Position numbers and translations under genes: made by a program
Part shown: positions 5,294 through 22,407 of the stretch, in pieces
Position numbering within the stretch: the first letter of the stretch is position 1
Layout: every line of letters begins with the position of its first letter
Origin: a virus
Length of the DNA: 30,276 nucleotides
Reading direction: 5' to 3' (one strand)
IMG/VR virus record: IMGVR_UViG_3300017731_000022
The notes under the pieces: model-generated
Seen by the model: only the letters and a program-made list of their open reading frames with translations
Databases searched by the model: none
What the model was told of the DNA's origin: nothing

Positions 5294-5424
5294 TGTATTT
5301 CTTGTTTAAGTGCTTTATATCCCTCTCTTATAGTTAAAGGTAGTTTATATTTACCTTGTGCTATACGGATGTTTTCTGTTTCTCCGTTTGCGTATTTTAA
5401 AAGTTCTAATATATTCTTTATCAT
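5284..5424 (-). CDS. Small ORF (46 aa), hypothetical; not in the ORF track
   Basis: Hand translation gives MIKNILELLKYANGETENIRIAQGKYKLPLTIREGYKALKQEIQWR. Its ATG shares one nt with the TAA of the 880-aa gene (TAATG). It fills an otherwise empty 130-nt gap and overlaps the next gene by 10 nt. Confidence 0.45.
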   Translation of the reverse strand: MIKNILELLKYANGETENIRIAQGKYKLPLTIREGYKALKQEIQWR

Positions 5425-8066
5425 TATTCTAATATTATTGTATCACTTTGTTCAGTTATTAGTGTATCTCCGTTTTCTGCAAGAGCAGTAGGTGCTGGTA
5501 AAGTTGTACCATATGCTATTGTATCATTTGAAAAAGAAACAACACCACCTATAGTATATCTTACTCTAATTGCAAACTTATATGTTATCTCGCTTTGTAA
5601 ACCTGTTACTTTTTTAGCTACAGTTGTATTTGGTAAAGTTTGAGAAAATGTATCATCTACATATAAATCATAACCAGTAATATTATTAGCTACAGGATTT
5701 GGTAAAGCAGTCCACCCAATAGTAATAAAGTCTGAGCCTTTAACTGTAACATTAAGACTTGCTAATCTACCTAAACTTGCTGATTGATTATTTTCTATAG
5801 CTGTTATACTTTGCGATAAACTATATAATTCTAAAGAACTTTTATTTGTTAGTAAATTAGTTTTTATTGAGTTTATTCTATAAGGTTTATTACCTATAAT
5901 GAATTTATCATTTAAGTTATAGTTTAAAATAATATGTAATGGTAAGTAAGCATCTAATTTATTTATTCTCGCTTGTGGATGAAACACACTTGCTACATAA
6001 TCTAAATAATATTTCTCTAATAGGTTTGTACCTTTAGGCTCTAAAAAGAACTCATCTTGCTCAAGTCCAAAATTTAAAGATGATGAAGCATCTGCAACAG
6101 CGCCACTAGAAACAAATACTTGACTTGGTCTATTATATGTCGAAACAGTTTCGTCTGTACCACCATCTACATTTTCAAACAAAAATGTTGGAGTTGCAGT
6201 TTGATTAACTATATATAATAATAATGGCTTACCTATTGTTGGGTTAAAATCTTTGTCTAACATAGCACCTTGACAAATAGTTGTTGTATCGCTATCAACT
6301 TCATCAGATAGCTTTTCAAACATCATTTTCTCAAAATCTAATTCTATTTTATAATCTCCACCATCTGCCTCTGGTATTCCATACTCAATTCCACCAAAAT
6401 TATCAGCTTGTAGCTCGTCTGATTTTACAACTAAATAACTTTTTTTACTCTTAAAGTTAAAATCAAAGTTTTTAAATTGTAATACTTTACCTATAGAATT
6501 TTTAGTTGTATCTACATATCTTGTTATATCATAAGAAATTCCCTCAGCGTAAAAGTCATTTAAAGGCAATACTCGTATTTGTGTACCATCTTTATAAGCT
6601 ACAAGATTAAACATCTTAAACAGATTAGTAATAAAATCAAAAGTTTTTATTTTAGGCATTTGCCTATTTATCTCAACATTATTTGCAACTGATAAACTAT
6701 CTAACTCATATGTTCCAGAGCCTACAGTTGGTTTTAATGCTAAAATTTCAAATGAGGAAATATTAAAAGAGTTAGTTGATGTAACCTCTATAAATACATT
6801 AACAACAGAACTATTAGCACCAAAATTATGAAGTATACTATAAGATGTTTGTCCTGTAAGCTCTTCGTTTATAATATTCTGTTCTGGTAAAGTAAAATCT
6901 AATTCTCCTATTGTAATAGAAGAACGATATACCCTTAAATTAAAAGTAGTATCAGCTGATGAAGTTGTAATATTAAAAGTTAAAGATGTACTTATACCAC
7001 CTCCAAAAATAATATTAGGTGCTTCACCAAATAAAGGTCGCATTTCATCTCCACTTATTAAACTTAAATTAGCATCAGTATCATCTGGTAAATGAAAATG
7101 CCCTCTTAACACATTTAATCCTCCTCCCTCTGGTGCATTACTCATAAAGCCTTTTTCCCTGTGCATCCATAGATAAAGATTGTTAAAATCCTCACTATTA
7201 AAAAACTCTCCTGTAAAGTCTATTTCAATGTTAGGTGTATTTCTTATAGCGTCTATTATTTGCCTTACCTTTATAGCTGGTTTTATATCTCTGTAATTTA
7301 TCTTTTGTCCAGCTACTGGAGTTGAAGAAACGTAAGCATTATTATTATATCTCATGTTTTTAGTATGAGTTATTAAAGGAAAACACACATCAGTTGGTGA
7401 ATCTCTAAACATTGGAAATATAGTAGCGTGATTATAAGCGAAATTCAAATTACTTGGGTATGTTAAATCACTTAGCATACTTTCACCAAGTATATCTTTC
7501 AGTTCAATAGTTTCTCCAAAAAATATTAATTTATAAGCGTGAGGTTTATTGTTTTTTAGTGATACACTACTTAATCTTATTTTACCTTTTTTATAATCAC
7601 TTCCGTTTAGTTTTATAAGTGCATCTACTTTATATCTTGCATCAAAGCTATTTAATATATCACTATCCTCATAATGTCTTAATATTTTAGAATTATGCTT
7701 TGAAGCTGGTACGTTAAACTGTTGAGAAAAAGGAGTAAATATTTTTGCTACATCCCTTACGTTTTTTATAGAATCCGTTATGCTTACACTTTCATCCTCA
7801 AATAAATCAAGTCTTTTAAAATCACTTTTAATTAAATATTGTTGTCCTGTTGTAAATATATCAGCAGACAAAGCTAATTGACTATTACTTGTAACTGCTG
7901 TTATTTTTGCAGAAGTTCCATCTGTTTCATTAAAAGCAATATATCCTACCTTAACAGTAGATGTAAAGTTTGCGTTAGCATCAACTAAGTTACTTGCAGA
8001 AGTGCTTGTAGCAACAGCTTGTTGAGTAAAAACTCCATCTCTTATGTATAGTTCTATTATCTGCAT
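5424..8066 (-). CDS. Large tail/baseplate structural protein with a C-terminal FN3-like domain
   Basis: The 880-aa ORF has a C-terminal segment LNVTVKGSDFITIGWTALPNP...ITGYDLYVDD...TYKFAIRVRY that looks like fibronectin type III. It ends with LAENGDTLITEQSDTIILE. Confidence 0.5.
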   Translation of the reverse strand: MQIIELYIRDGVFTQQAVATSTSASNLVDANANFTSTVKVGYIAFNETDGTSAKITAVTSNSQLALSADIFTTGQQYLIKSDFKRLDLFEDESVSITDSIKNVRDVAKIFTPFSQQFNVPASKHNSKILRHYEDSDILNSFDARYKVDALIKLNGSDYKKGKIRLSSVSLKNNKPHAYKLIFFGETIELKDILGESMLSDLTYPSNLNFAYNHATIFPMFRDSPTDVCFPLITHTKNMRYNNNAYVSSTPVAGQKINYRDIKPAIKVRQIIDAIRNTPNIEIDFTGEFFNSEDFNNLYLWMHREKGFMSNAPEGGGLNVLRGHFHLPDDTDANLSLISGDEMRPLFGEAPNIIFGGGISTSLTFNITTSSADTTFNLRVYRSSITIGELDFTLPEQNIINEELTGQTSYSILHNFGANSSVVNVFIEVTSTNSFNISSFEILALKPTVGSGTYELDSLSVANNVEINRQMPKIKTFDFITNLFKMFNLVAYKDGTQIRVLPLNDFYAEGISYDITRYVDTTKNSIGKVLQFKNFDFNFKSKKSYLVVKSDELQADNFGGIEYGIPEADGGDYKIELDFEKMMFEKLSDEVDSDTTTICQGAMLDKDFNPTIGKPLLLYIVNQTATPTFLFENVDGGTDETVSTYNRPSQVFVSSGAVADASSSLNFGLEQDEFFLEPKGTNLLEKYYLDYVASVFHPQARINKLDAYLPLHIILNYNLNDKFIIGNKPYRINSIKTNLLTNKSSLELYSLSQSITAIENNQSASLGRLASLNVTVKGSDFITIGWTALPNPVANNITGYDLYVDDTFSQTLPNTTVAKKVTGLQSEITYKFAIRVRYTIGGVVSFSNDTIAYGTTLPAPTALAENGDTLITEQSDTIILE

Positions 8067-10318: not shown

Positions 10319-10975
10319 TTAGTTTAGTGATATTTTCAAATTTTGTAATATCTCCGTTAGCGATTCCATAGAGTGCGTTAAACCATCCCCATTTGGCTGA
10401 GAAAGCAGATGCTGTGCTAAAGCTATCTCGTTCTTCTTGCCCAAAGAGTTCATCATAACTATAGATAAGTCCTTGCCTAAATTGTAAAAAAAAACAATGG
10501 CACCTAAAACTACATCTAATGGAAACTCTTTAGCAATATCACTTGTGTCTGGATTATATTCTTTTATTTTATATCTATTACCTCTTCTATGTTCTATTGG
10601 TCTAAATAATACATTTATTGCTCTATGCAAATTATCATTATCTCCTATGAATGAATCTAAGTCCATATATTCTCCAAATGACATATCATCTAATTCTGGT
10701 ATAAAACCATAATCAATTCCATTATGTGTAAACCTATTTATAAGCTGGTGTTGTGAATCAAACATAGTATTTATTATCTCACAAATTTCTGCTATGTCTG
10801 TAGCTTTCATATTTCTAACTACAATCTCTGGTACATTACAAAATATCTCTACTATCTTTAATTGTATAGACGCATCATTAGTTTCATCTAACTTGCTTTC
10901 TAACTTTGCAAACTCTTGATATTGTGCTAAAGTAACATCATTTAAACTTGTTGGGATTCTTAGATTAACTTTCAT
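10319..10975 (-). CDS. Hypothetical protein downstream of terL
   Basis: The ORF is 218 aa with an ATG start. I do not recognise a family. Confidence 0.5.
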   Translation of the reverse strand: MKVNLRIPTSLNDVTLAQYQEFAKLESKLDETNDASIQLKIVEIFCNVPEIVVRNMKATDIAEICEIINTMFDSQHQLINRFTHNGIDYGFIPELDDMSFGEYMDLDSFIGDNDNLHRAINVLFRPIEHRRGNRYKIKEYNPDTSDIAKEFPLDVVLGAIVFFYNLGKDLSIVMMNSLGKKNEIALAQHLLSQPNGDGLTHSMESLTEILQNLKISLN

Positions 10976-12537: not shown

Positions 12538-13068
12538 TTAACTCAACAATGTGTTTTTTACTTTTCTAATTAGTTTAGCACCTGGAACTTTAGCTATTTC
12601 TTTTTGTTTAATCTTATTAGTTAAAGATTTATCATATACTTTTAGTCTAGTATCTATAAAGTCTCTTATACTATCTCTATCCCAGTTTATTATTGTTTTG
12701 TTTATTTCCGTTATGAGGTCTTTGTATTCTTCTGACTTTTGTTTTTCTAAGTTGTCTTGTATACCTTTTATTATTATACGCTTTTTTTGTGCATTGAATT
12801 TTTTAATAAATAAACTATAGTCATCTATTATTTTATCAAATATCATTTTATCTCTATCTTCTATACAATTTATAGTACTAGCATGATATATCGCTAAGTC
12901 ATGATTTGCATTTAATACTGCTGCTACTTTATCATAAGTATAACCTAATTCGTAACCTATCTTACAAAATACTTTTTTAGCATATACTATTTCACGTTTT
13001 CTACTTTTAGTTGCTATATCAAATTGGTAGTAATTATGTAACTCGTCTTTTAATTGTTCTAATGTCAT
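12538..13068 (-). CDS. DnaA C-terminal (domain IV)-like HTH DNA-binding protein
   Basis: KSRKREIVYAKKVFCKIGYELGYTYDKVAAVLNANHDLAIYHASTI matches the pattern of the DnaA domain IV helix-turn-helix (R..iv.aR....yl...l..s...ig......H..v.ha). Confidence 0.5.
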   Translation of the reverse strand: MTLEQLKDELHNYYQFDIATKSRKREIVYAKKVFCKIGYELGYTYDKVAAVLNANHDLAIYHASTINCIEDRDKMIFDKIIDDYSLFIKKFNAQKKRIIIKGIQDNLEKQKSEEYKDLITEINKTIINWDRDSIRDFIDTRLKVYDKSLTNKIKQKEIAKVPGAKLIRKVKNTLLS

Positions 13069-13208
13069 TATCTTGTTATTTTACTATCTATCTTTTCTAT
13101 TAAATATCTTAATTGGCCTTGTTCCCATGTTCCAAGTTTTACGCCATTAATTGTAAATTTATAAAAATCTTTTCTATCTGTTTCTTTTAATTCAATATTT
13201 ATATACAT
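13068..13208 (-). CDS. Small ORF (46 aa), hypothetical; not in the ORF track
   Basis: Hand translation gives MYINIELKETDRKDFYKFTINGVKLGTWEQGQLRYLIEKIDSKITR. It starts 2 nt after the upstream stop, and its TAA overlaps the next ATG (TAATG). Confidence 0.45.
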   Translation of the reverse strand: MYINIELKETDRKDFYKFTINGVKLGTWEQGQLRYLIEKIDSKITR

Positions 13209-13210
13209 AA

Positions 13211-13459
13211 CTATTTATCTTGTTTTTCTCTACTTTTAATTACTCTGCTTTGTTCTTCTCTTAAATACTTTATTTCATGTTGTAAATAATCTAAAGCTTT
13301 TTCTAAATCTTGTATTTCATTACTTTTTAAATACTCATAGCCTTTTTTACCTGCTCTACAAACATATTTAATTATATTTCCTCTATTAAAGTTTAATCTG
13401 TATGCTTGCACAACATCTATTACTTCTATTCCTTGATCTGTTTTATAATGTAAACTCAT
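13211..13459 (-). CDS. DUF3310-like phage protein
   Basis: NFNRGNIIKYVCRAGKKG...QDLEKALDYLQHEI matches my recollection of the DUF3310 pattern (gN.iKY..R...K...DL.KA..Y). Confidence 0.5.
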   Translation of the reverse strand: MSLHYKTDQGIEVIDVVQAYRLNFNRGNIIKYVCRAGKKGYEYLKSNEIQDLEKALDYLQHEIKYLREEQSRVIKSREKQDK

Positions 13460-14172
13460 ATTTTTGTTCTTAGTTTTAATAAATTATAGCATTCTATGTA
13501 TTTCTGTTTTGCTTTACCTTTGTAATGTTGTATAAATAAATTATATAAATTCTTTACGTAACAAAATTTAGTATCGCATGATTTATAAAGTTTTTTAGCA
13601 TAAGCTTTTCCTTTACCTTTAAAATAGTTAACATTGTCAGCTCCATCACCAATAATCATTTGTTCGTAGAAATTATATAATGCTTGCTGTTCTGTTATAT
13701 CATAAACTTCTCTATGTTTAAAATGATAATTATACATTAAACAAGGAAATTGTTTGTAATCTTTATCAATAGAAACTATCATGACTTTATTTCTACCTAC
13801 TTCTTTAGATATATCATACCAATATTTAGCAACTAAATCGTCTGTTTCAATACCGTAAGCAAATAAACCATTATATTCTTTTCTAACAAACTCATGCATT
13901 TGAGATAATAAAGGTGGTATTTCAGTGTCATTTCTATTAGCTTTATATGTTTTAGTTAGTATCTTTCTAAAGTTTCCTTTAGATCCATTAAAAGTATATA
14001 TCTTTTCTATATCGTATAATTCTTCTAAGTCATTAACTATTTTCATATATTGTTGATCAAACTTAGCTATACTGTCTTCTATGTCTCTATAAAACTTATC
14101 ACTACTGCCTTCACTTTTAGCCCTTAAACAAGAAGCATAAACTAAACTATCTGCATCAATTAATAATATCAT
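13456..14172 (-). CDS. 5'-3' exonuclease / flap endonuclease (T4 RNase H-like)
   Basis: The FEN acidic-cluster motifs appear in order: LLIDADSLVY, YKANRN, GIETDDLVA, IVSIDKDYKQ and IGDGADNV. They parallel T4 RNase H (YKKNRG, EADD, SSDGDF, GDKKDNV). Confidence 0.75.
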   Translation of the reverse strand: MILLIDADSLVYASCLRAKSEGSSDKFYRDIEDSIAKFDQQYMKIVNDLEELYDIEKIYTFNGSKGNFRKILTKTYKANRNDTEIPPLLSQMHEFVRKEYNGLFAYGIETDDLVAKYWYDISKEVGRNKVMIVSIDKDYKQFPCLMYNYHFKHREVYDITEQQALYNFYEQMIIGDGADNVNYFKGKGKAYAKKLYKSCDTKFCYVKNLYNLFIQHYKGKAKQKYIECYNLLKLRTKI

Positions 14173-14909
14173 TATTCTTTTACAAACGTTCCATTTTGCA
14201 TTTTACCTTTACGGTTTTTAATTTCATTATAAGCAGAGTGTATGCATTCTTCTATACTCATAGCATTTAAATGTGCTAAGTTAGTTAATACAACAACCAT
14301 ATCTCCAATAGCATCTTCTATTTCTTTTGTATCTTGTTTTAATATTGCTTGTGCTAATTCACCTGCTTCTTCTATTAATTTAACATATTGTGTTTGCGCA
14401 TTACCTTTATCGTATAATCCTCTATCTTTTGCCCAAGTTCTAATATTATCAAATATTTCTAAATTTATTTTTGGTTTATTAATTACATCCCAAAAGTTTT
14501 TTAATGACTGCACATATATATATCTTTCATTATTATGTGCTGACTTAAAATTATTTCTTAAAATATATTCTTTTACTTCATCATTTAACTCTATATTATA
14601 TTCACTATCTAATTCTATATTAGTTGGCCAAGTATAATTATCAAAGCTTTTATTAAATGTCTTTTTAAATGTAACGGTTGTTTTAGTAATATGTATCATA
14701 AAATTATTAATTGTTTGTTTATACGTTCTTATATCATTTTTGTAGCCCAACTTATTTTGCCATTCAAATTCTAATTTAGAAGCTTCATCAATACATTTTG
14801 TTTTAGCTAATATTTTAAAGTCTGAATAACCTTGTTGGACTACGATTCTTTTTGCAGGATTTACAGTACAACCTACTTTTACACCTTCTATATGGTATAT
14901 GTAATACAT
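14172..14909 (-). CDS. mazG: MazG-type all-alpha NTP pyrophosphohydrolase with an N-terminal GIY-YIG/T5orf172-like segment
   Basis: The C-terminus, QYVKLIEEAGELAQAI...EIEDAIGDMVVVLTNLAHLNAMSIEE...NEIKNRKGKMQNGTFVK, carries the MazG EExxE...D signature. The N-terminus, YYIYHIEGVKVGCTVNPAKR, resembles a GIY-YIG superfamily core. Confidence 0.65.
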   Translation of the reverse strand: MYYIYHIEGVKVGCTVNPAKRIVVQQGYSDFKILAKTKCIDEASKLEFEWQNKLGYKNDIRTYKQTINNFMIHITKTTVTFKKTFNKSFDNYTWPTNIELDSEYNIELNDEVKEYILRNNFKSAHNNERYIYVQSLKNFWDVINKPKINLEIFDNIRTWAKDRGLYDKGNAQTQYVKLIEEAGELAQAILKQDTKEIEDAIGDMVVVLTNLAHLNAMSIEECIHSAYNEIKNRKGKMQNGTFVKE

Positions 14910-15151
14910 TAAATTTTTATGTTAGATCTACCACACAAAGGATATAAGTAAGTGTGGTATTTCATACCTTTAGTAATTTTTTTATTTTTAAATATAATGG
15001 TTTCTTTAGCAATATGTTCTTGTTTGCCACAATAACCAATAACTTCTCTATCTGGTTTTTCTATTTTTATAGATCCATAATATTTGTTACCAACATGATA
15101 ATCTACATGGTAACCTAAATGTTCGTATTTAACTCCGTAATATAAATTCAT
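14909..15151 (-). CDS. Hypothetical protein
   Basis: The 80-aa ORF is preceded by motif copy 15175..15187. Its TAA overlaps the next ATG. Confidence 0.5.
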   Translation of the reverse strand: MNLYYGVKYEHLGYHVDYHVGNKYYGSIKIEKPDREVIGYCGKQEHIAKETIIFKNKKITKGMKYHTYLYPLCGRSNIKI

Positions 15152-15174
15152 TGTATTTGTTTTATTGTTATATA

Positions 15175-15187
15175 GCTAATATACAAA
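15175..15187 (-). promoter_or_regulatory. Promoter-like motif TTTGTATATTAGC
   Basis: The minus strand reads TTTGTATATTAGC-TATATAACAATAAAACAAATACA-ATG within the 59-bp gap. The 13-mer is identical at 18385..18397. Confidence 0.5.
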
Positions 15188-15210
15188 TAACTTGTTAATA
15201 AAAAAAATAT

Positions 15211-15852
15211 TTATATGTTTTTATTGTAGTGACGTTCATATATATGTAAGTTATGAGCATAGTGTGTATAAAAACCTTGCTCACTATTTAAACTATTAGC
15301 AACTAATTCATGTAATTTTAAGAAACAATAAGCATCATTACAAAATCCAAACCATAAATCATTGCTTCTCATTAATACTGTCATGTGTAACTTATCTGAA
15401 TCAGGTGTATAATAAAATTGTATTGATAAAGTACAAGGAGTATCTTTAGAATAACCAGTATGTTCTTTACCATCATATATACTTATTACTGCACGTCTAG
15501 AATACTTATCACGTTTTAATTCTTTTATAGCATATTCCAATTGATTGTTTCTACTCCATTGCCAACCATAGTTTGAATTAACATATCCACGTTCATCCAT
15601 GTGGTTATACCAAATCTTAGCTACTTTAGCTATTTCAGTAGCATCACGGTTTTTAGATAAATACCATTCCCATTCTTTTTCTGCATAGTCTAATTTGAAA
15701 CCACGCTTTGGTGTAGTTACTATTTTTTGATTAGTATCTAATATAGTAAATATTTGATTGTATAAAGCTTTAGTACCATTAGCACTAGGTTGTGAATCTA
15801 ACTTTTTATAGTAATATTCAAAAGCTTCTGTTACGGTTTGAAATTGCCACAT
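15211..15852 (-). CDS. Deoxypyrimidylate hydroxymethylase of the ThyA superfamily; closest in motif pattern to T4 gp42 dCMP hydroxymethylase
   Basis: Four motifs parallel T4 gp42 as I remember it. EKEWEWYLSK matches ELEWYKSK, and VNSNYGWQWS matches INSNYGW.IWS. SRRAVISIY...PCTLSIQF carries a candidate catalytic Cys. MRSNDLWFGFCNDAY matches MRSNDVVFGFRNDYA, and the protein ends with HIYERHY. Confidence 0.75.
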   Translation of the reverse strand: MWQFQTVTEAFEYYYKKLDSQPSANGTKALYNQIFTILDTNQKIVTTPKRGFKLDYAEKEWEWYLSKNRDATEIAKVAKIWYNHMDERGYVNSNYGWQWSRNNQLEYAIKELKRDKYSRRAVISIYDGKEHTGYSKDTPCTLSIQFYYTPDSDKLHMTVLMRSNDLWFGFCNDAYCFLKLHELVANSLNSEQGFYTHYAHNLHIYERHYNKNI

Positions 15853-16001
15853 AATATATCTTTTTTTCTTATTGGATAAATATACTTATTATCTTTAAAT
15901 AAATATATATTTGTATTATCATTTAATTTATCTTTCCTTAAATATCTACCTTTTAATTTTGACCCTGCAAATTTAAAATAATAAAGTTTGTTTTGGTTCA
16001 T
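15831..16001 (-). CDS. Possible small ORF (56 aa) bridging the GT and hydroxymethylase genes
   Basis: Hand translation gives MNQNKLYYFKFAGSKLKGRYLRKDKLNDNTNIYLFKDNKYIYPIRKKDILCGNFKP. It covers the 120-nt gap, but it overlaps the GT end by 29 nt and the next gene by 22 nt. Confidence 0.3.
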   Translation of the reverse strand: MNQNKLYYFKFAGSKLKGRYLRKDKLNDNTNIYLFKDNKYIYPIRKKDILCGNFKP

Positions 16002-17178
16002 ACGCTTGTTTTTTCTTGGAAACTGTTTTAGACTTTTCTATTAAATCTTTAAAAGCTATATTTACATCACAATGTGATTTAGCAACATTATAAGCTAAGT
16101 TCCTTTTTTTATTCCTTAATTGTTTGTTATTTGATAATTCAACTATTTGTTCAACAGTTTCTTGATATTTATCTCTTTCATTATATATAAAACAATCTAA
16201 GTCATAAAAACTATCTCCTTGAATATGATAATTATTTTGTGCCCATTGTTTATCTACAACAACAATCATGCCAATGTTTATCATTTCTAAAGTAGAATAT
16301 TCTATAATATTACTATACTCTTCCTTTTTTAAATTAAAAAAATTAGCACCAAACATATTGTTAGATAATAATTCTAAAGTTGGTATTCTATCATAAGGAC
16401 CATAAACATGTAAATGATCTAAGTCTTGGCTATCTATAATACTTTTACTTCTATATTTTATATTACTATGTTCAGGTGATTTTAAATCCTTAGAGTTAGT
16501 AACAAAGAATTTTGTTTTAGCTCCAATAGATTTTTCTATACCTCTTGCTTCACATATTATTTCATGTTTAGATAATAATGGTTGTAAATGAATCATTCTA
16601 TCAGGCTCTTTAAATGTAGCGAATCTACCTAAATAAGACATTTTTTTTCTTTGTTCTTTTTTAATTAAAAAATCTAACTTACTAAAATCATGACCATTAT
16701 TAAAAAATTTAACAGGTGTATTAATACCAATTTCTTTTATTTTTTTATAAAACACAGTTCCTTTACCAAAAGTAAAAGCACAATCCATTTTTTTAACTGT
16801 TTCCCATAAATTGTAATTCCTATTTAAAGAATGTATTTTATGATCATTTTGAAAAATAATTTTAATAGGTTTATCAACACCAACTACAAGTTCATTAAAA
16901 AACTTTTCTTTATATGAATTAGAATTTGATTTACTTGGTAATGATTGGTAAAAAACAATATCACAATTATTTAATTGTTGCTTTATATTATTTATTTTAT
17001 CGTTTTTAAACTCTATTATTTTAGTTTGTTGAGTATTTTTTCTACCCCATTTTTTATCTAATGTAGCATAAGACTTACAGTTATACCCTTGTGATAATAA
17101 ATAATTTTGAAATTCAGTTGCAAATCTAGTAACACCACAACCTTCAATACCTCGTCCTAATAATATACCTATCTTCAT
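15973..17178 (-). CDS. a-gt: DNA alpha-glucosyltransferase-like GT-B glycosyltransferase (T4 AGT homologue)
   Basis: The 401-aa length compares with about 400 aa for T4 AGT. MKIGILLGRGIEGCGVTRF parallels T4 MRICIFMARGLEGCGVTKF, and NNCDIVFYQSLPSKS parallels NDCDILIINSVPATS. IIFQNDHKIHSLNRNYNLWETVKKMD parallels VVYQHDHSVLSLRRNLGLEETVRRAD, and IEYSTLEMINIGMIVVV parallels LEYTHLELGACGTIPVF. The T4 sequence is from memory. Confidence 0.7.
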   Translation of the reverse strand: MKIGILLGRGIEGCGVTRFATEFQNYLLSQGYNCKSYATLDKKWGRKNTQQTKIIEFKNDKINNIKQQLNNCDIVFYQSLPSKSNSNSYKEKFFNELVVGVDKPIKIIFQNDHKIHSLNRNYNLWETVKKMDCAFTFGKGTVFYKKIKEIGINTPVKFFNNGHDFSKLDFLIKKEQRKKMSYLGRFATFKEPDRMIHLQPLLSKHEIICEARGIEKSIGAKTKFFVTNSKDLKSPEHSNIKYRSKSIIDSQDLDHLHVYGPYDRIPTLELLSNNMFGANFFNLKKEEYSNIIEYSTLEMINIGMIVVVDKQWAQNNYHIQGDSFYDLDCFIYNERDKYQETVEQIVELSNNKQLRNKKRNLAYNVAKSHCDVNIAFKDLIEKSKTVSKKKQAYEPKQTLLF

Positions 17179-17435
17179 TTTTTATTATAATTATTTAATG
17201 CTGCTAAATAAGCAACGGCGTCTAATAAATTGTCTTCTTTGTGATTATAAGATTGTCTAGATAACTTTAAAGCTACAAGACACATATACATATCTTGTGG
17301 TGTAATAGTTTTACCAGTAGCTCCTGATGCTATCATAGCTGCTCTTTCCATTCCTTCTGAAAATGGACCGTACATACGTTCTTTTTCTTGTGAACGTTTA
17401 TTTATAATCTTATTTGCTTCTTCTAATATATTCAT
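17175..17435 (-). CDS. Small helical protein (DUF6378-like, tentative), translationally coupled to the GT gene
   Basis: The 86-aa ORF overlaps the GT start by ATGA. The pattern ERMYGPF...MYMCLVALKLSRQSYNHKEDNLLDAVAYLAAL recalls a phage family often found near nucleotide-metabolism genes. Confidence 0.4.
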   Translation of the reverse strand: MNILEEANKIINKRSQEKERMYGPFSEGMERAAMIASGATGKTITPQDMYMCLVALKLSRQSYNHKEDNLLDAVAYLAALNNYNKK

Positions 17436-17560
17436 TCTTCTTCGTCTGTTTGCTGTTTATCTATAATAATCTTTAATGCTTCTAATTTTATATACATTTG
17501 TGATACTATGTTTTCTAGTCTAAGTATTCTTTGTAGTTGTGTATATTTCTTTTTATTCAT
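17432..17560 (-). CDS. Small ORF (42 aa), hypothetical; not in the ORF track
   Basis: Hand translation gives MNKKKYTQLQRILRLENIVSQMYIKLEALKIIIDKQQTDEEE. It overlaps the next gene by ATGA and fills a 117-nt gap. Confidence 0.4.
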   Translation of the reverse strand: MNKKKYTQLQRILRLENIVSQMYIKLEALKIIIDKQQTDEEE

Positions 17561-17753
17561 AACTTTCTAATATTAAGCATTCAATGTCATGTAATTGTTC
17601 TTCAGAAAGTAAATCATAAATGTCAATACCGTTAACAGTTACACTTTCTATATAAGCACTATGTGGTGAACCTGGATAATCCCATGTTTGTGGTTCTGCT
17701 TCTTCGTAAGAGTATTCAACAAATAAAGCTACATCGCAATAATTAATAATCAT
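17553..17753 (-). CDS. Small acidic hypothetical protein
   Basis: The 66-aa ORF is coupled to the upstream gene by ATGA. Confidence 0.5.
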   Translation of the reverse strand: MIINYCDVALFVEYSYEEAEPQTWDYPGSPHSAYIESVTVNGIDIYDLLSEEQLHDIECLILESYE

Positions 17754-18025
17754 AATTCGTATTGTTTAAGTTTATGTTCTAATTCTTCTAATTGTTCTTG
17801 TAATTTACTTATAATTTCATTCTTTTGAGACCTTATTAAACTTACTTTTTTATTTAATATGTCATTCTCAACTTGTAATCTATTTGTAAATATACCAATC
17901 TCTGTAATACCTTTAACACAATTATTTATGTCTTTGTTATTTGGTTTTTGTTTTTGCCATTCTAATAATTTATCTATTAAAAAGGAATACCAAACTTGGT
18001 AAGATTGTTTTTGTAGTAAATTCAT
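17750..18025 (-). CDS. Hypothetical coiled-coil protein
   Basis: The 91-aa ORF has a heptad-like C-terminal half. It is coupled by ATGA on both sides. Confidence 0.5.
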   Translation of the reverse strand: MNLLQKQSYQVWYSFLIDKLLEWQKQKPNNKDINNCVKGITEIGIFTNRLQVENDILNKKVSLIRSQKNEIISKLQEQLEELEHKLKQYEL

Positions 18026-18210
18026 ACTGAAGTACCTATTAAAAAACCTACTACTGCAATACCTAAAAACATTAATACTAAAATTAATTGCATTATAGTA
18101 TCTCTTTGTCTCATCAATTTACGTTCTTGTTCTTCTAGTTCTTTTTGCGTATAAACTTCTATTCTGTTTTTTCGTGTTTGGATATGTAATCCTGTCTTTG
18201 TCTTTTTCAT
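18022..18210 (-). CDS. Small membrane-anchored protein
   Basis: The 62-aa ORF has a basic N-terminal half and a C-terminal hydrophobic helix, IMQLILVLMFLGIAVVGFLIG. Confidence 0.5.
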   Translation of the reverse strand: MKKTKTGLHIQTRKNRIEVYTQKELEEQERKLMRQRDTIMQLILVLMFLGIAVVGFLIGTSV

Positions 18211-18211
18211 T

Positions 18212-18367
18212 TTATTGTATATTAAATATTACGTCTCTTATGTATTGAGCTCTATTAAGTAATTTAGTTTCTGTTTCTTTTGGTAATGTTCTTACAAGCA
18301 TATTAGCACTTAGAGTTGTTTCTATGTCTCTAAGTTCTTTACGTAAGTCTGTTAGTTGTGTTCTCAT
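18212..18367 (-). CDS. Small ORF (51 aa), hypothetical; not in the ORF track
   Basis: Hand translation gives MRTQLTDLRKELRDIETTLSANMLVRTLPKETETKLLNRAQYIRDVIFNIQ. It begins 17 nt after motif 18385..18397 and ends 1 nt before the next ATG. Confidence 0.5.
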   Translation of the reverse strand: MRTQLTDLRKELRDIETTLSANMLVRTLPKETETKLLNRAQYIRDVIFNIQ

Positions 18368-18384
18368 TGTTATTGTTTTATACT

Positions 18385-18397
18385 GCTAATATACAAA
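18385..18397 (-). promoter_or_regulatory. Promoter-like motif TTTGTATATTAGC
   Basis: The minus strand reads TTTGTATATTAGC-AGTATAAAACAATAACA-ATG. The downstream flank is also similar to the copy at 15175. Confidence 0.5.
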
Positions 18398-18442
18398 ACA
18401 ACTTAACATTATAAACAATTTTTTAACTATTTTAACAAAACT

Positions 18443-18640
18443 TTAACATTTATCATATATCTTATCTATCTCTGCTATCCATTGTATTAAACGTTTTGGA
18501 TTACAAGAACACGGTTCACTATATTTATGTTTATAGTATTTAGCGTGTAAAGTACATAATAACTTATATTGCTCTTGACTAAGCTTATCTTTTACCTCAG
18601 CTTTGAACTTTTTCCAGTTATCTTTATCTATTTGTTCCAT
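18443..18640 (-). CDS. Hypothetical protein
   Basis: The 65-aa ORF has an ATG start and contains PCSCNPKR. Confidence 0.5.
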   Translation of the reverse strand: MEQIDKDNWKKFKAEVKDKLSQEQYKLLCTLHAKYYKHKYSEPCSCNPKRLIQWIAEIDKIYDKC

Positions 18641-18780
18641 AAATCTAAGTCTATATCATTCCACTCTTCACGACGTCTATCACATCCGCAATCTTTATTT
18701 AATAATTTACTAATTTTTTTAACTAACCAATGTATACCTGTATAATAAGTAAAATAGTAAAATAAATCTCCTAATTTCAT
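18628..18780 (-). CDS. Small ORF (50 aa), hypothetical; not in the ORF track
   Basis: Hand translation gives MKLGDLFYYFTYYTGIHWLVKKISKLLNKDCGCDRRREEWNDIDLDLWNK. It overlaps the sigma gene stop by ATGA and fills a 136-nt gap. Confidence 0.4.
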   Translation of the reverse strand: MKLGDLFYYFTYYTGIHWLVKKISKLLNKDCGCDRRREEWNDIDLDLWNK

Positions 18781-19268
18781 AATTGATCTTTTATAAATTT
18801 TTTAGTTGTTCTATAAGTATTATAAAGTGATATATAGCTTATACCAGTTTCTCTACTTAAACTAGCAACGCTTTTTCCACTTGCTATTAATTCAAAAACT
18901 TTTCTATCATACCAATAAAGGTCATTAAGTATTTGATCTACTTTGTTTTTATTTTTAGCGTATTCAACCTCATCTATACCCGGATCATCAATTTGTTTTA
19001 TTTCTTTTATTTGGTCTAAATATATCTTAATTTTTTTAGCTTCTTTTTTATGTATATTTAAATAAATACCTCTTAAAACTTTATAACAATAATAGTGATT
19101 AATATCACCTTTATAAGATATATCTAATCCTTTATGTATGTCTAAGTGTATTTGTATATACATTTCTTGTACAACATCTTCTGCTAAACTAGGATTACAA
19201 CCAAATGACTTTACTATGTTTATCCAATCTTTATGCTTTAAATAAGCTAACTCTACTAAAGATTTCAT
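18777..19268 (-). CDS. Sigma-70 family (ECF-like) RNA polymerase sigma factor
   Basis: AEDVVQEMYIQIH...YYCYKVLRGIYLNIHKKEAK resembles region 2. LYWYDRKVFELIASGKSVASLSRETGISYISLYNTYRTTKKFI resembles the region 4 HTH. Confidence 0.65.
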   Translation of the reverse strand: MKSLVELAYLKHKDWINIVKSFGCNPSLAEDVVQEMYIQIHLDIHKGLDISYKGDINHYYCYKVLRGIYLNIHKKEAKKIKIYLDQIKEIKQIDDPGIDEVEYAKNKNKVDQILNDLYWYDRKVFELIASGKSVASLSRETGISYISLYNTYRTTKKFIKDQL

Positions 19269-19272
19269 TTCA

Positions 19273-20136
19273 TTATGTTAATTTTTTATTTGATATTACA
19301 AAATACTTAAGTGGATCATATATCTCACCAACTACAAATGGTAGACCAAATTCATTAATACTAAAACTAAATGTTTCAAAAGCATAACCTCTTGAATTTT
19401 TACAACTAACAGTTATCCATTCTTTGTTTACTGTATTTGCTTCCAATTGAATTTGTGTCTCTGTTTTTTTCATTAAAAAGCTTCCTAAATGTCCTGTTGG
19501 TTTATCACTACCATAATTGCTATGTATAACAGTTACTATATGGCATTTATATTTAGCACTCCATTCCATTATCTTTTGTACACATAAATTAGATTCTTCT
19601 AAATTATTTACATCAGAAACTAAATCAGCAATACCATCAATAATAATTAATCCATTTTTATCTTTATTTTCTTCTAAACAATATTCTATAAATTGCATAC
19701 GCTGTTTATAATTTATAGTTCTTAAAGCATATGTATGATAACAACCTAAGTCATGCATATTGGCCATATCTTTTACTCTTTTAAATACTCTTTGACTGTG
19801 CCAATGACCTTGCTCTGTATCAAAATGAATTAAACATTTATTATCTCTATGTCCTAACATTTGTCCACCAAAATTATTACCACCACTTAAATAAACTGAA
19901 GCTAATAATGATATAAAAAAAGTCTTTTTAGTTTTTGGCGGTGCTTGTACAAATGAAAAGTTACCGTACGTACCTATTGGAATTGGGAATTTTTTTTCTC
20001 CACTTTTGGTTTGGATAGTAGTTTCACCAAGACTTAATGCTATAGGAGGATATTCCATAAATTCATTAGTGTCAATATAACACTCTTCCTTTATTAATTC
20101 CATTAACATGTTATCTGTGGTTTTTTTTTCTGTCAT
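19273..20136 (-). CDS. RecA-fold P-loop ATPase (DnaB/RepA-like, AAA_25 type); replicative helicase candidate
   Basis: Walker A-like QAPPKTKKT and Walker B-like GLIIIDGIADL are present, followed by HIVTVIHSN. I place the start at ATG 20136, because the track start at 20169 is a TTG that lies inside the promoter-like motif. Confidence 0.55.
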   Translation of the reverse strand: MTEKKTTDNMLMELIKEECYIDTNEFMEYPPIALSLGETTIQTKSGEKKFPIPIGTYGNFSFVQAPPKTKKTFFISLLASVYLSGGNNFGGQMLGHRDNKCLIHFDTEQGHWHSQRVFKRVKDMANMHDLGCYHTYALRTINYKQRMQFIEYCLEENKDKNGLIIIDGIADLVSDVNNLEESNLCVQKIMEWSAKYKCHIVTVIHSNYGSDKPTGHLGSFLMKKTETQIQLEANTVNKEWITVSCKNSRGYAFETFSFSINEFGLPFVVGEIYDPLKYFVISNKKLT

Positions 20137-20157
20137 AATATATTTTGTCTTGTTTTT

Positions 20158-20170
20158 GTTAATATACAAA
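20158..20170 (-). promoter_or_regulatory. Promoter-like motif TTTGTATATTAAC
   Basis: The motif lies 21 nt upstream of ATG 20136. Its T-rich 5' end merges with the U-tract of terminator 20168..20196. Confidence 0.5.
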
Positions 20171-20196
20171 AAAAAAGAGAAGTCATTAACCTCTCT
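20168..20196 (-). terminator. Rho-independent terminator after the SSB gene
   Basis: The minus-strand RNA reads AGAGAGG-UUAAUGA-CUUCUCU followed by U8. This is a 7-bp stem with one G-U pair. Confidence 0.65.
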
Positions 20197-20223
20197 AAAA
20201 AAAATATTTTGTTTTATTTTATT

Positions 20224-20529
20224 TTAAAAAGGTAAATCAGCAGTTTCAGTAGTATTTAATTCTACTGTTTGTTGTTGATTTTCTCTTTCGGCATTTACAA
20301 TACTTCCGTTATTCCAAACGACTTTACCGTTTCCAATGTAGGTTTTTTGTTTTTTAGCTTCTCTTTCTTCCTGTGTTTGACTAACATAGATACTTGTATT
20401 GTTTCCGTATCTTGTTTCGTCATTTACAGACATAGTTAAATTTACATACACGGCTCCATCTTTGCCTGCTATAAATTTTTCTTTAGGTAATTTGTCTACT
20501 CTTATTGAGTAAGTAATTATTGCACTCAT
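20224..20529 (-). CDS. ssb: Single-stranded DNA-binding protein (short OB-type with an acidic tail)
   Basis: The 101-aa ORF ends in TETADLPF, which resembles the SSB protein-interaction tip (D-I/L-P-F). It lies in the replication/recombination block. Confidence 0.55.
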   Translation of the reverse strand: MSAIITYSIRVDKLPKEKFIAGKDGAVYVNLTMSVNDETRYGNNTSIYVSQTQEEREAKKQKTYIGNGKVVWNNGSIVNAERENQQQTVELNTTETADLPF

Positions 20530-20535
20530 ATTTAT

Positions 20536-20919
20536 TTATTTTTTAAATGATTCTGATTCGTCTTCTCCAAATACTCCAAGTTCATAAAAACCTGTAAGCT
20601 TTAAAACAGCTCTACTCATTGAGCGTTTCTCAGCCATTTCAGCAACATACCAACTATTAGTATTTCCGTCTTTGAAACTTGTACCTTTATATGCACTACC
20701 AAAAGTTTCTATACGTTTACCATCTTTTTCTGCATTTGCTTTAAATACTGCGAAATTTGGCTCACATTTAATAACTTCATAGTGTACATTAATTTGTTCC
20801 ATTGCTTGTATTTTATCTATACCTTGCCTTGTAATAATAGTATAATGTTGATGTTTGAAAAAATCTTCTTTTGTTAAATTATATTTCTCATATAATTCTT
20901 TTAATTTGTCTCTATTCAT
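20536..20919 (-). CDS. Hypothetical protein of the recombination module (possible annealing/accessory protein)
   Basis: The 127-aa ORF has a C-terminal segment AEMAEKRSMSRAVLKLTGF that loosely recalls Rad52/Sak-type motifs. The assignment is not secure. Confidence 0.3.
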   Translation of the reverse strand: MNRDKLKELYEKYNLTKEDFFKHQHYTIITRQGIDKIQAMEQINVHYEVIKCEPNFAVFKANAEKDGKRIETFGSAYKGTSFKDGNTNSWYVAEMAEKRSMSRAVLKLTGFYELGVFGEDESESFKK

Positions 20920-21056
20920 TATTGTTTGTTTAAATATTCTACTTCTAAAATTGATTCTAAATATCTTACTCTATTTTCTAATGCTTGTATTCTTGCATTT
21001 AAGAAATCTATTGTTTCGTTTGAGGCTACTCTTTTTACGTCTTCGTAATGTGTCAT
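20919..21056 (-). CDS. Small ORF (45 aa), hypothetical coiled coil; not in the ORF track
   Basis: Hand translation gives MTHYEDVKRVASNETIDFLNARIQALENRVRYLESILEVEYLNKQ. It starts 1 nt after the upstream stop and overlaps the next gene by TAATG. Confidence 0.45.
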   Translation of the reverse strand: MTHYEDVKRVASNETIDFLNARIQALENRVRYLESILEVEYLNKQ

Positions 21057-21057
21057 G

Positions 21058-21273
21058 TTATAAATTTTCAAAATAAATAAAAGGATTCATATTACCAAAT
21101 AAATATCCTAAATTTATTATGCTAGAATACTTTAAATCTCCAACGAAACATTCTTTTTCTAGTGATTCTACTACACAACTAACTAAATCTGGTTGTGATG
21201 TGTTTTTAATTTGAATAAGTTCTTTGTAATGTGGTTTAAGTCTGTCATATAGACTAATCATTTTGTAATTCAT
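21058..21273 (-). CDS. Hypothetical protein
   Basis: The 71-aa ORF is the first gene after motif 21299..21311. Confidence 0.5.
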   Translation of the reverse strand: MNYKMISLYDRLKPHYKELIQIKNTSQPDLVSCVVESLEKECFVGDLKYSSIINLGYLFGNMNPFIYFENL

Positions 21274-21298
21274 ATTTCTAAGTTTTATGTTATTTACT

Positions 21299-21311
21299 AC
21301 AAATATACAAA
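21299..21311 (-). promoter_or_regulatory. Promoter-like motif TTTGTATATTTGT
   Basis: The motif lies 25 nt upstream of ATG 21273 and immediately downstream of terminator 21340..21366. Confidence 0.5.
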
Positions 21312-21339
21312 AAAAAATTATATAAACAGTTTTTTAACT

Positions 21340-21366
21340 AAAAAAAAACCACCCTTTTTAGAGTGG
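21340..21366 (-). terminator. Rho-independent terminator after the NinG gene
   Basis: The minus-strand RNA reads CCACUCU-AAAA-AGGGUGG followed by U9, with one G-U pair in the stem. Confidence 0.7.
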
Positions 21367-21427
21367 CTTAATTTGATTGGTTACAATCTAAACATAAAAC
21401 AAAGACAATTTTGTAATACAAATATAT

Positions 21428-21850
21428 TTATTTATTAAGGTTATCAGTTAATTCTTTATATTTACTTATTAACATTTCTAAATCAATATTATCAAACTTA
21501 ATAACTTGTTTTGATTTTATAAATAATTCTTCCGCTAGTCCTTTATGGTATTTTTCATCTAAATGCTTAGCAAATAAATATTGTTCACCATATCTAAACA
21601 CGTTACAACCTGCACATTGTACTTGGCAATTTAATTCTGTTATTTTATCATTGTCATCTAATGTACCAAATCTAGTAGCATAATTTTTACGACTTTGAAA
21701 ATGCCCGCATTGTAGTTTTTTCCAATGGTCTTTTTTACCACAAGTAAAACATTCAGCTATATCATTTTTTGCATAACGTCTTCTAATGTATATACTAAAA
21801 ACATTATCTAATTTATCTATTAGCTTTTTTCTTTTGGATTTTTTTGCCAC
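21428..21850 (-). CDS. ninG: NinG/Rap-like recombination endonuclease
   Basis: LDNVFSIYIRRRY...CFTCGKK...LQCGHFQSR...RF...N...QCAGCNVFRYGEQ follows the lambda NinG family pattern. The only canonical start is GTG at 21850..21848. Confidence 0.65.
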   Translation of the reverse strand: MAKKSKRKKLIDKLDNVFSIYIRRRYAKNDIAECFTCGKKDHWKKLQCGHFQSRKNYATRFGTLDDNDKITELNCQVQCAGCNVFRYGEQYLFAKHLDEKYHKGLAEELFIKSKQVIKFDNIDLEMLISKYKELTDNLNK

Positions 21851-21856
21851 GCGTGT

Positions 21857-21891
21857 GTATATTATAATATTATATATATATTATTATATAC
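21857..21891. repeat. A/T-only imperfect palindrome in the intergenic gap
   Basis: GTATATTATAATAT...ATATTATTATATAC has 14-bp arms with one mismatch around a 7-bp centre. It is flanked by the palindromic hexamer ACGCGT at 21849..21854. Confidence 0.8.
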
Positions 21892-21904
21892 GTAATATAT
21901 ATAA

Positions 21905-21924
21905 TAATTAAATATAATTAAATA
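21905..21924. repeat. Tandem 10-bp repeat TAATTAAATA x2
   Basis: Bases 21905..21914 equal 21915..21924 exactly. The repeat lies in the same 77-bp intergenic region. Confidence 0.8.
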
Positions 21925-21927
21925 TAT

Positions 21928-22407
21928 TTATTTTTTAAAATTTTTAGTAATTTTCTCAGCACTTCTTGCACCAAAATATCCACCGTAAACTAAAAGTAAT
22001 AACGAAGATAGTAAATCTATCCACTCAGATGATATTCTAAACACTTCTAAGGAACTATCTAGTATTATATATATAAATAATGTAAGAGTTAAAAAAGCTA
22101 AGCTTAAAGGTCTTATATTTTTACTTAACCAACTATCTGAATTCATGTCTGCAACCCAACGTTTTGTTGTTTCTTGCATTTCAATCATATCATACCTTAA
22201 TTCTTCTAACAATAATTGCTTATCTGTTTCTGATAATCCAGTGTCTCCTTCTATTTTAGATGCTAATTCCTTTAATGAATCTATGCCAGTTATATTTCCT
22301 GCAACTGTTAATAGTTCTGGTGCTATTTCTTTACCTTGTTTTACAAGCCATCTTAAAGCGTCACCTACTCTTGTAGTTCCATTTTTCTTTTTATACTTAC
22401 CTGCCAT
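21928..22407 (-). CDS. Lysis-associated membrane protein (holin or spanin-like candidate)
   Basis: The 159-aa ORF has a soluble N-terminal ~95 aa. Two hydrophobic helices follow, IRPLSLAFLTLTLFIYIIL and LLSSLLLLVYGGYFGA. It overlaps the endolysin stop by 11 nt. Confidence 0.5.
   Translation of the reverse strand: MAGKYKKKNGTTRVGDALRWLVKQGKEIAPELLTVAGNITGIDSLKELASKIEGDTGLSETDKQLLLEELRYDMIEMQETTKRWVADMNSDSWLSKNIRPLSLAFLTLTLFIYIILDSSLEVFRISSEWIDLLSSLLLLVYGGYFGARSAEKITKNFKK

Follow-up and report, generated by a model that had tools for sequence, protein, structure and literature searches.

Does a virus outside the T-even phages carry a working relative of the T4 alpha-glucosyltransferase (AGT), and if so, what would such an enzyme modify there? 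The question is raised by IMG/VR virus record IMGVR_UViG_3300017731_000022, a stretch of 30,276 nucleotides that we analysed at its full length and refer to as the window. A gene at positions 15973-17178, on the minus strand and with an ATG start, encodes a protein of 401 amino acids (aa) with the N-terminus MKIGILLGRGIEGCGVTRF, which the initial annotation had proposed as a homologue of T4 AGT. The protein is a genuine, intact member of the T4 AGT family. We consider it probable that it is a retaining enzyme of the GT-B fold that glycosylates 5-hydroxymethylcytosine (hmC) in phage DNA, with the hmC supplied by an adjoining module of MazG and thymidylate-synthase-like (TS-like) genes.

Membership in the family rests on sequence, profile, and structure matches. 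A single-sequence phmmer search of the PDB with the 401-aa protein returned T4 AGT (1xv5) at E = 1e-23. The HMMER alignment with 1xv5 consists of two stretches, covering residues 1-148 and 261-379 of the window protein, and pairs GRGIEGCGVTRF with ARGLEGCGVTKF, NNCDIVFYQSLPSKS with NDCDILIINSVPATS, FQNDHKIHSLNRNYNLWETVKKMD with YQHDHSVLSLRRNLGLEETVRRAD, and IEYSTLEMINIGMIVVV with LEYTHLELGACGTIPVF. All four collinear blocks that had been proposed are thus reproduced, as is the similar length (401 aa versus 400 aa). From 93 metagenomic AGT homologues we aligned 27 (alignment A1) to obtain a family profile, which matched T4 AGT in the PDB at E = 5.8e-90 (profile residues 1-387 against T4 residues 2-399). 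At E ≤ 0.01 this search of the whole PDB returned no GT4 enzyme, no other glycosyltransferase, and no protein besides T4 AGT. Pfam family PF11440 (AGT), which we take to be CAZy family GT72, matched the protein with 51.1 bits against a gathering cut-off of 25, and PHROG 2888 ('alpha-glucosyltransferase') matched it over its full length (1.2e-66); the NCBIfam scan returned no model for it. The AlphaFold2 model has a mean pLDDT of 90.5, and its top nine Foldseek matches are all chains of T4 AGT (TM scores of 0.82-0.87, E values down to 5e-29), the best being 1y6f with a TM score of 0.87. The gene is also under purifying selection, with a ratio of nonsynonymous to synonymous substitution rates (dN/dS) of 0.18-0.22 against relatives of 73-83 per cent identity.

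These matches bear out the proposed homology, and they also speak to a different reading of the gene, in which the product would be a GT4-like glycosyltransferase of the cell envelope, or one with some other non-DNA target, that the phage carries as a moron without any role in DNA modification. The GT4 enzymes share the GT-B fold and are the next-best structural neighbours of the window protein, and some sources automatically annotate distant homologues as 'glycosyltransferase involved in cell wall biosynthesis'. The GT4 structures nevertheless form a second tier at TM scores of about 0.6. The best match outside the AGT family is the GT4 enzyme BshA (TM 0.63, E = 1e-10), and no GT4 match does better than this, as against 0.87 and 5e-29 for AGT. 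The profile search of the PDB found T4 AGT alone, and neither GT4 Pfam domain (Glycos_transf_1 or Glyco_trans_4) matches the protein at E ≤ 0.1. Moreover, the gene sits among nucleotide-metabolism genes and is tightly linked to a cytosine-specific hydroxymethylase homologue, and the AGT family is reported from phages alone in PMC13216743. The similarity to T4 AGT is therefore real, the best match is not to an envelope enzyme, and we regard a GT4-like moron as very improbable.

Which sugar would the enzyme transfer? Columns that are invariant in the 27 aligned homologues are R9, E12, G13, G15, K42, D112, S117, R185, K190, G213, E293, and E298; among them, G15, D112, R185, K190, E293, and E298 align with G15, D115, R204, K209, E306, and E311 of T4 AGT. 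In the T4 enzyme, Gly15 and Arg204 bind the beta-phosphate of UDP and Glu311 binds the ribose, while His114, His116, and His140 contact the glucose (Lariviere et al. 2005, as cited in PMC6024577). The UDP-binding set is retained in the window protein (G15, R185 for R204, and E298 for E311) and is invariant across the 27 homologues plus T4. The glucose contacts have changed more, with only one His of the three kept: T4 H114, H116, and H140 correspond to N111, H113, and F137. Asn occupies the first of these positions in twenty-two of the twenty-seven homologues, and Phe at the third is found in the window protein's subclade. This difference bears on the sugar and not on family membership.

With two of the three glucose-contacting His replaced, the donor sugar is perhaps not glucose. 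The enzyme would then belong to the same class and act on the same hmC-containing DNA but take another hexose, a hexosamine, or a pentose from its donor, leaving a glycosyl-hmC that differs from the one in T4. Loss of the same His has been taken as an argument for a different sugar in RB69 ORF003c, and gp306 of Bacillus phage G, which lies near sugar-nucleotide genes, likewise differs at the glucose-contact positions. On the other hand, the equivalents of T4 H116 and D115 are retained, and Pfam and PHROG scans found no sugar-nucleotide biosynthesis genes among the window open reading frames (ORFs). The enzyme would thus need an abundant UDP-sugar from the host, for which UDP-glucose is the simplest candidate. 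On balance we hold a donor other than UDP-glucose to be possible though not likely. The initial annotation had cautioned that the sugar could not be read from the sequence, and with a single glucose-contacting His kept this caution was justified.

The same caution had been extended to the acceptor base, which proved more readable because the adjoining TS-like gene carries a cytosine-specifying Asp. This gene, at 15211-15852 on the minus strand, encodes a 213-aa TS-like pyrimidine hydroxymethylase that we predict to be a dCMP hydroxymethylase. Its first match in the PDB is T4 dCMP hydroxymethylase (7.4e-17), ranked above all thymidylate synthases. The protein retains Glu60 and the catalytic Cys140, which correspond to Glu60 and Cys148 of the T4 gp42 type, and its 'FGFCND' aligns with 'FGFRND' of T4 gp42. 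Within the motif MRSNDLWFGFCND, Asp173 falls at the position of Asp179 in T4 gp42 and Asn177 in ThyA. This specificity position holds Asp in 24 of 24 related phage TS-like sequences, whereas E. coli ThyA has Asn. Mutagenesis of the T4 hydroxymethylase (D179N) and of thymidylate synthase (N177D) indicates that this residue sets cytosine versus uracil specificity, with Asp specifying cytosine. The window protein also has just 11 residues past the conserved His203, as against 58 in ThyA, where the C-terminal 58 residues close the active site for hydride transfer. Together, Asp173, the short C-terminal tail, and the linked transferase, which needs a hydroxyl acceptor, point to a dCMP hydroxymethylase and to hmC as the acceptor.

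The acceptor could in principle be 5-hydroxymethyluracil (hmU). According to their titles, PDB entries 1y8z and 1y6g are crystals of T4 AGT that hold an HMU base, and in some related loci (L003) a dCMP deaminase gene adjoins the TS-like gene. There is, however, no deaminase gene in the window, and the pyrimidine-specificity position has Asp and not Asn both in the window and in all of the relatives. An hmU acceptor is in our judgement highly unlikely, and we continue with hmC.

How would hmC be made and reach the DNA? On the 3' side of AGT the genes follow in the order 56-aa ORF, TS-like, 80-aa ORF, MazG fusion, 5'-3' exonuclease, and DUF3310 protein. The small conserved 56-aa ORF (p56; 15831-16001, minus strand) bridges the 3' end of AGT and the 5' end of the TS-like gene, and has homologues in the same position at seven related loci. 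The conserved 80-aa ORF (p80; 14909-15151, minus strand) lies between the TS-like and MazG genes and has homologues at thirteen related loci. Neither small ORF has a Pfam or PHROG family match. The MazG gene (14172-14909, minus strand) encodes a 245-aa protein in which a MazG nucleotide pyrophosphohydrolase domain is fused to a T5orf172/MUG113-like N-terminal region. Pfam places MazG at residues 176-234 (6.7e-8) and, weakly, MUG113 at residues 10-55, PHROG MazG-like families match as well, and the domain as a whole spans residues of about 150-245. Synteny between the MazG and TS-like genes is kept in eighteen loci. One relative (L001) has a stand-alone MazG of 101 aa instead of the fusion. The MazG protein is a candidate dCTPase and a candidate functional analogue of T4 gp56.

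Counting a DUF6378 gene directly upstream of AGT, the module comprises DUF6378, AGT, p56, the predicted dCMP hydroxymethylase, p80, and MazG, and takes up about 3.3 kb, its genes packed tightly on one strand. We found no terminator-like sites in 13000-19500. Sigma-70 promoter-like sites were fewer than expected from shuffled sequence, and the Bacteroidetes-type motif TTTG..TAnnTTTG had two matches against three expected.

A single kinase-like lead lies within the window. The DUF3310 gene (13211-13459, minus strand) encodes an 82-aa protein that is similar to the T7 gp1.7 nucleotide kinase over the C-terminal part of the latter. The protein matches Pfam DUF3310 at 3.8e-12 and PHROG 'nucleotide kinase' families, and BLASTP aligns it with the C-terminal part of T7 gp1.7 at 38 per cent identity over 58 aa (E = 1e-4). 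On this similarity, its candidacy for the kinase step that acts on 5-hydroxymethyl-dCMP (hm-dCMP) is speculative.

Several points weigh against an hmC-glycosylating pathway of this kind, beginning with the altered glucose contacts described above. Sequence alone cannot tell a dCMP hydroxymethylase from a dCMP methyltransferase, and our assignment leans partly on the presence of AGT. PHROG, Pfam, and NCBIfam scans of window ORFs of at least 70 aa found neither a gp1-like dNMP kinase nor a DNA polymerase. The route from hm-dCMP into DNA would thus depend on host enzymes of uncertain competence, which is a weak point of the model. With a window of 30.3 kb and a genome estimated at about 32-34 kb, about 2-4 kb lie outside our view.

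We nevertheless favour the hmC pathway, which could run as follows. The MazG-domain pyrophosphatase would convert dCTP to dCMP, and the TS-like enzyme, using Cys140, Glu60, and Asp173, would convert dCMP to hm-dCMP. Kinases, either from the host or a small phage protein, would raise hm-dCMP to the triphosphate, which the host replicase would incorporate; we propose the host replicase since the window yielded no gene for a phage polymerase. Once the DNA has been replicated, AGT would glycosylate the hydroxymethyl group of hmC in the duplex DNA of the phage itself, drawing on a UDP-sugar that the host provides. Glucose is the default sugar, though uncertain. Family membership, fold, the kept UDP-binding residues, synteny, and purifying selection are seen in the data, whereas the hmC acceptor, the parts played by MazG and the kinases, the anomeric outcome, and the sugar are inferred. 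By analogy with T4, the modification may keep restriction and CRISPR nucleases from cutting the phage DNA.

What, then, does the gene directly upstream of AGT contribute? It lies at 17175-17435 on the minus strand and encodes an 86-aa DUF6378 protein (Pfam PF19905, 51 bits) with four predicted helices. The stop codon of DUF6378 and the start codon of AGT share the overlap ATGA, and the minus-strand junction reads AAAAAATGAAGATA. The initial annotation had reported this overlap, which is plainly seen in the sequence, and had further suggested that the small protein could be an accessory factor of AGT. In its fuller form, that idea makes DUF6378 a dedicated AGT subunit, translationally coupled to the transferase and needed for its activity or targeting.

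The ATGA overlap favours this idea, as does the wider distribution of the gene pair: in sixteen of twenty-seven AGT clusters, including some whose AGT is only 34 per cent identical, DUF6378 precedes AGT on the same strand at a distance of about 0-1.4 kb. There is also a precedent in that T4 AGT binds a partner protein, the gp45 clamp (PMC13216743). The pairing is, however, far from strict in either direction. We found no DUF6378 near T4 a-gt or gp306 of phage G, nor in close relatives whose AGT is 81 per cent identical; there, AGT is preceded by another ORF, of 92 aa. Conversely, in sister phages that lack AGT, DUF6378 is followed immediately by the TS-like and MazG genes, or by the gene for an unrelated 363-aa protein, and many other phages without AGT carry it too, including phages of Mycobacterium, Gordonia, and Escherichia. 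Its fusions are with enzymes of another kind. Among 75 longer representatives, the fused domains are PRA-PH/MazG (4 + 2), dUTPase (2), TS-like (1), HAD (1), and UDG (1).

Retention with a hydroxymethylase and MazG where AGT is missing, and fusion to nucleotide enzymes, make DUF6378 more likely a protein of nucleotide-pool metabolism than an accessory factor of AGT. We therefore set aside the accessory-factor suggestion, an AGT subunit being improbable, and read DUF6378 as more likely a nucleotide-pool or pyrimidine-nucleotide component, going by its genomic company. The protein is very strongly conserved, with all of the best 120 of 2282 metagenomic matches at least 79 per cent identical (fusion and conservation data: window 17175-17435; proteins P0222, P0237, and P0263; alignment A4).

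We tried two more specific assignments for DUF6378 and rejected both. As a relative of T7 gp1.7/DUF3310, and hence the missing kinase, it reached an hhalign probability below 1 per cent with both a shallow (A2) and a diverse (A3) profile. As a MazG-like fold, its AlphaFold2 model (pLDDT 80) gave nothing below E = 1.9 in a Foldseek search of the PDB, and AF_0060 reached E = 8.6, which is not significant. The DUF6378 profile had no matches among PDB sequences, a structure search of BFVD returned other DUF6378 proteins only, the NCBIfam scan gave no model, and in the literature we searched the family receives passing mention in three genome reports only.

Is the arrangement peculiar to this phage? 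IMG/VR holds 521 contigs that encode AGT relatives, including two viral contigs (32.4 and 15.5 kb) with a 100 per cent identical AGT, and metagenomic AGT homologues already bear precomputed PF11440 labels. We compared 84 related loci, which fall into 27 clusters at 90 per cent AGT identity. Contigs with an AGT 42-83 per cent identical to that of the window repeat the order AGT, TS-like, MazG; with the small ORF included (AGT, small ORF, TS-like, MazG), the order is kept at AGT identities of 44-83 per cent. The parts of the module do not always travel together, though. Contig L019 encodes a TS-like protein that is 77 per cent identical to its counterpart in the window, versus only 44 per cent for AGT, a discordance which suggests that the transferase has been exchanged between lineages or evolves faster than the core.

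The sister phages that lack AGT are of two kinds. Three of them (L091-L093) have DUF6378 at 4001-4261, an Asp-type TS-like gene at 4264-4896, and MazG at 4896-5657, with no glycosyltransferase. By implication, the DNA of these lineages would carry hmC without a sugar (or some other C5-cytosine product), with AGT as an optional cassette. In four others (L087-L090) a protein of 363 aa takes the place of AGT between DUF6378 and the TS-like gene (L087:4277-5368), and L087 also has a 56-aa gene placed as in the window. We rejected the 363-aa protein as a divergent AGT or other glycosyltransferase: its hhalign probability was 0.6 per cent and it had no meaningful Pfam, PHROG, or PDB match, its sole PHROG match (1.1e-08) being to a family without an assigned function. 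We regard it as a candidate DNA-modifying enzyme of another type.

Two more distant loci carry further transferases beside AGT. At locus L003 (1148-6476), AGT is accompanied by a dCMP deaminase, a TS-like gene of the Asp type, and a GT2 enzyme whose score of 29 bits exceeds the cut-off, while in L004 (6968-10557, on a 156-kb contig) AGT is flanked by two Glyco_transf_25 genes. By analogy with the TAGT of T2 and T6, these extra transferases suggest di- or differently glycosylated DNA.

A bolder reading of the same loci joins these observations. The module would be a self-contained cassette of about 3.3 kb that needs neither a phage polymerase nor a gp1-type kinase, DUF6378 would be a new component that remodels pyrimidine dNTPs, and the AGT slot would be a swap site. 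DUF6378 could then supply the missing hm-dCMP kinase, or it could serve the hydroxymethylase and the pyrophosphatase as a scaffold or regulator. The swap site would hold an AGT with an altered sugar pocket here, the 363-aa protein in some sisters, and nothing in others. As a whole we offer this reading tentatively, and think it rather unlikely to hold in full.

How does the system compare with those already described? Glycosylated hmC of the glucosyl type is textbook phage DNA hypermodification. In cultured phages, to our knowledge, it has been documented essentially only in large T-even-like myoviruses, the phage G homologue being uncharacterised. The window protein resembles T4 AGT (PDB 1xv5, 1y6f, 1y8z, 1ya6) in its length, its collinear full-length homology, its GT-B fold, and its retained equivalents of G15, D115, H116, R204, K209, E306, and E311, and in being encoded along with a dCMP hydroxymethylase homologue. 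It differs in having only about 24 per cent identity and in the N111 and F137 that replace two glucose-contacting His. The phages differ as well, a small Flavobacteriia-type phage of about 32 kb standing against a 170-kb T-even myovirus, and genes for the T4 partners (gp45 clamp, gp43 polymerase, gp1 kinase, beta-GT, and TAGT) were not found in the window.

The hmC pathway of T4 (gp56, gp42, gp1, gp43, and a-gt/b-gt) likewise has a pyrophosphatase, an Asp179-type TS-like hydroxymethylase, and then a post-replicative GT-B transferase. In the window, however, a MazG domain joined to a T5orf172-like region stands in for gp56 as the pyrophosphatase, homologues of gp1 and gp43 were not found, and DUF6378, p56, and p80 are interleaved in a set of about 3.3 kb. 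The T4 pathway, with its anti-restriction and anti-CRISPR role, is described in PMC6024577 and PMC13216743.

A tblastn search of 50,697 phage records identified gp306 of Bacillus phage G as the closest cultured-phage protein (29 per cent identity over the full length, E = 8e-43), followed by proteins of Erwinia and T-even-type phages at 24-28 per cent. Neither the window protein nor a 414-aa member of the large-contig clade, used as queries, found a cultured relative better than phage G (29-30 per cent). Phage G gp306 and gp313, annotated as alpha-glucosyltransferases, are alike in belonging to the AGT family outside the T-even group and in missing T4 H140, and unlike in coming from a 498-kb jumbo phage with two copies, sugar-nucleotide genes nearby, and no DUF6378 neighbour. 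PMC13216743 places the AGT family in T-even-type phages and notes Bacillus phage G with a second alpha-GT copy. The nearest relatives of the window system belong to a marine AGT clade from metagenomes (IMG/VR, Tara/JGI; e.g. IMGVR_UViG_3300030450_003723, 34.1 kb). They share an AGT of 62-100 per cent identity and the order DUF6378 (or another small ORF), AGT, TS-like, MazG, but they are unannotated environmental contigs, some of whose sisters have the 363-aa protein in place of AGT or lack AGT altogether. Our literature search found no paper joining hmC glucosylation with phages of Flavobacteria.

What kind of phage carries the gene? The window ORFs all lie on the minus strand and include portal, tail, lysis, and terminase genes along with a small replication and nucleotide module. 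GC content is about 23-35 per cent; it is clearly lower in the early, nucleotide, and replication region (13000-22000, 23-28 per cent) than in the structural regions (29-36 per cent), and the lowest-GC kilobase (16001-17000, 22.9 per cent) spans most of the AGT gene. A gene at 18777-19268, on the AGT strand and upstream of AGT by about 1.6 kb, encodes a 163-aa protein of the ECF/Bacteroidetes-type sigma-70 family. T4 has its late sigma factor gp55 about 1.8 kb upstream of a-gt, a parallel that is probably a coincidence.

The sole nucleotide similarity to cultured phages is a segment of about 400 nucleotides (10530-10932) that is 77.6 per cent identical to 46 records of Baltic Sea Flavobacterium phages (hattifnatt, hemulen, snork, and others), where the matches fall in hypothetical genes. 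The window genes resemble those of marine Flavobacteriia phage contigs, and of the AGT homologues one came from a Polaribacter metagenome-assembled genome and others from Tara and JGI marine samples. From the Flavobacterium phage similarity, the Polaribacter and marine homologues, and the 32.4-kb contig with an identical AGT, we infer that the host is probably a marine member of Flavobacteriia and that the genome is probably about 32-34 kb. The claim that AGT occurs here outside the T-even phages therefore stands, given the Flavobacterium-phage similarity and the small genome of about 32 kb; it is not unprecedented, with the homologues in phage G already known and 521 IMG/VR contigs encoding relatives.

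The mechanism we propose is that of T4 and is not new. What is new is its setting, a compact module in a small marine phage, and the sugar may differ. If confirmed, the finding would mean that T4-type chemistry is used by small (about 32 kb) phages of marine Bacteroidota, and that a few genes leaning on the host replicase suffice for the pathway, with the transferase a swappable cassette beside a conserved core of hydroxymethylase and MazG. The conservation and fusions of DUF6378 point to an unrecognised role of this family in deoxynucleotide-pool metabolism. Confirmation would also make the family a source of new hmC-glycosyltransferases, possibly with another sugar, for 5hmC-labelling technology, and would bear on escape from restriction and CRISPR in marine phage-host systems and on biases in virome sequencing and cloning.

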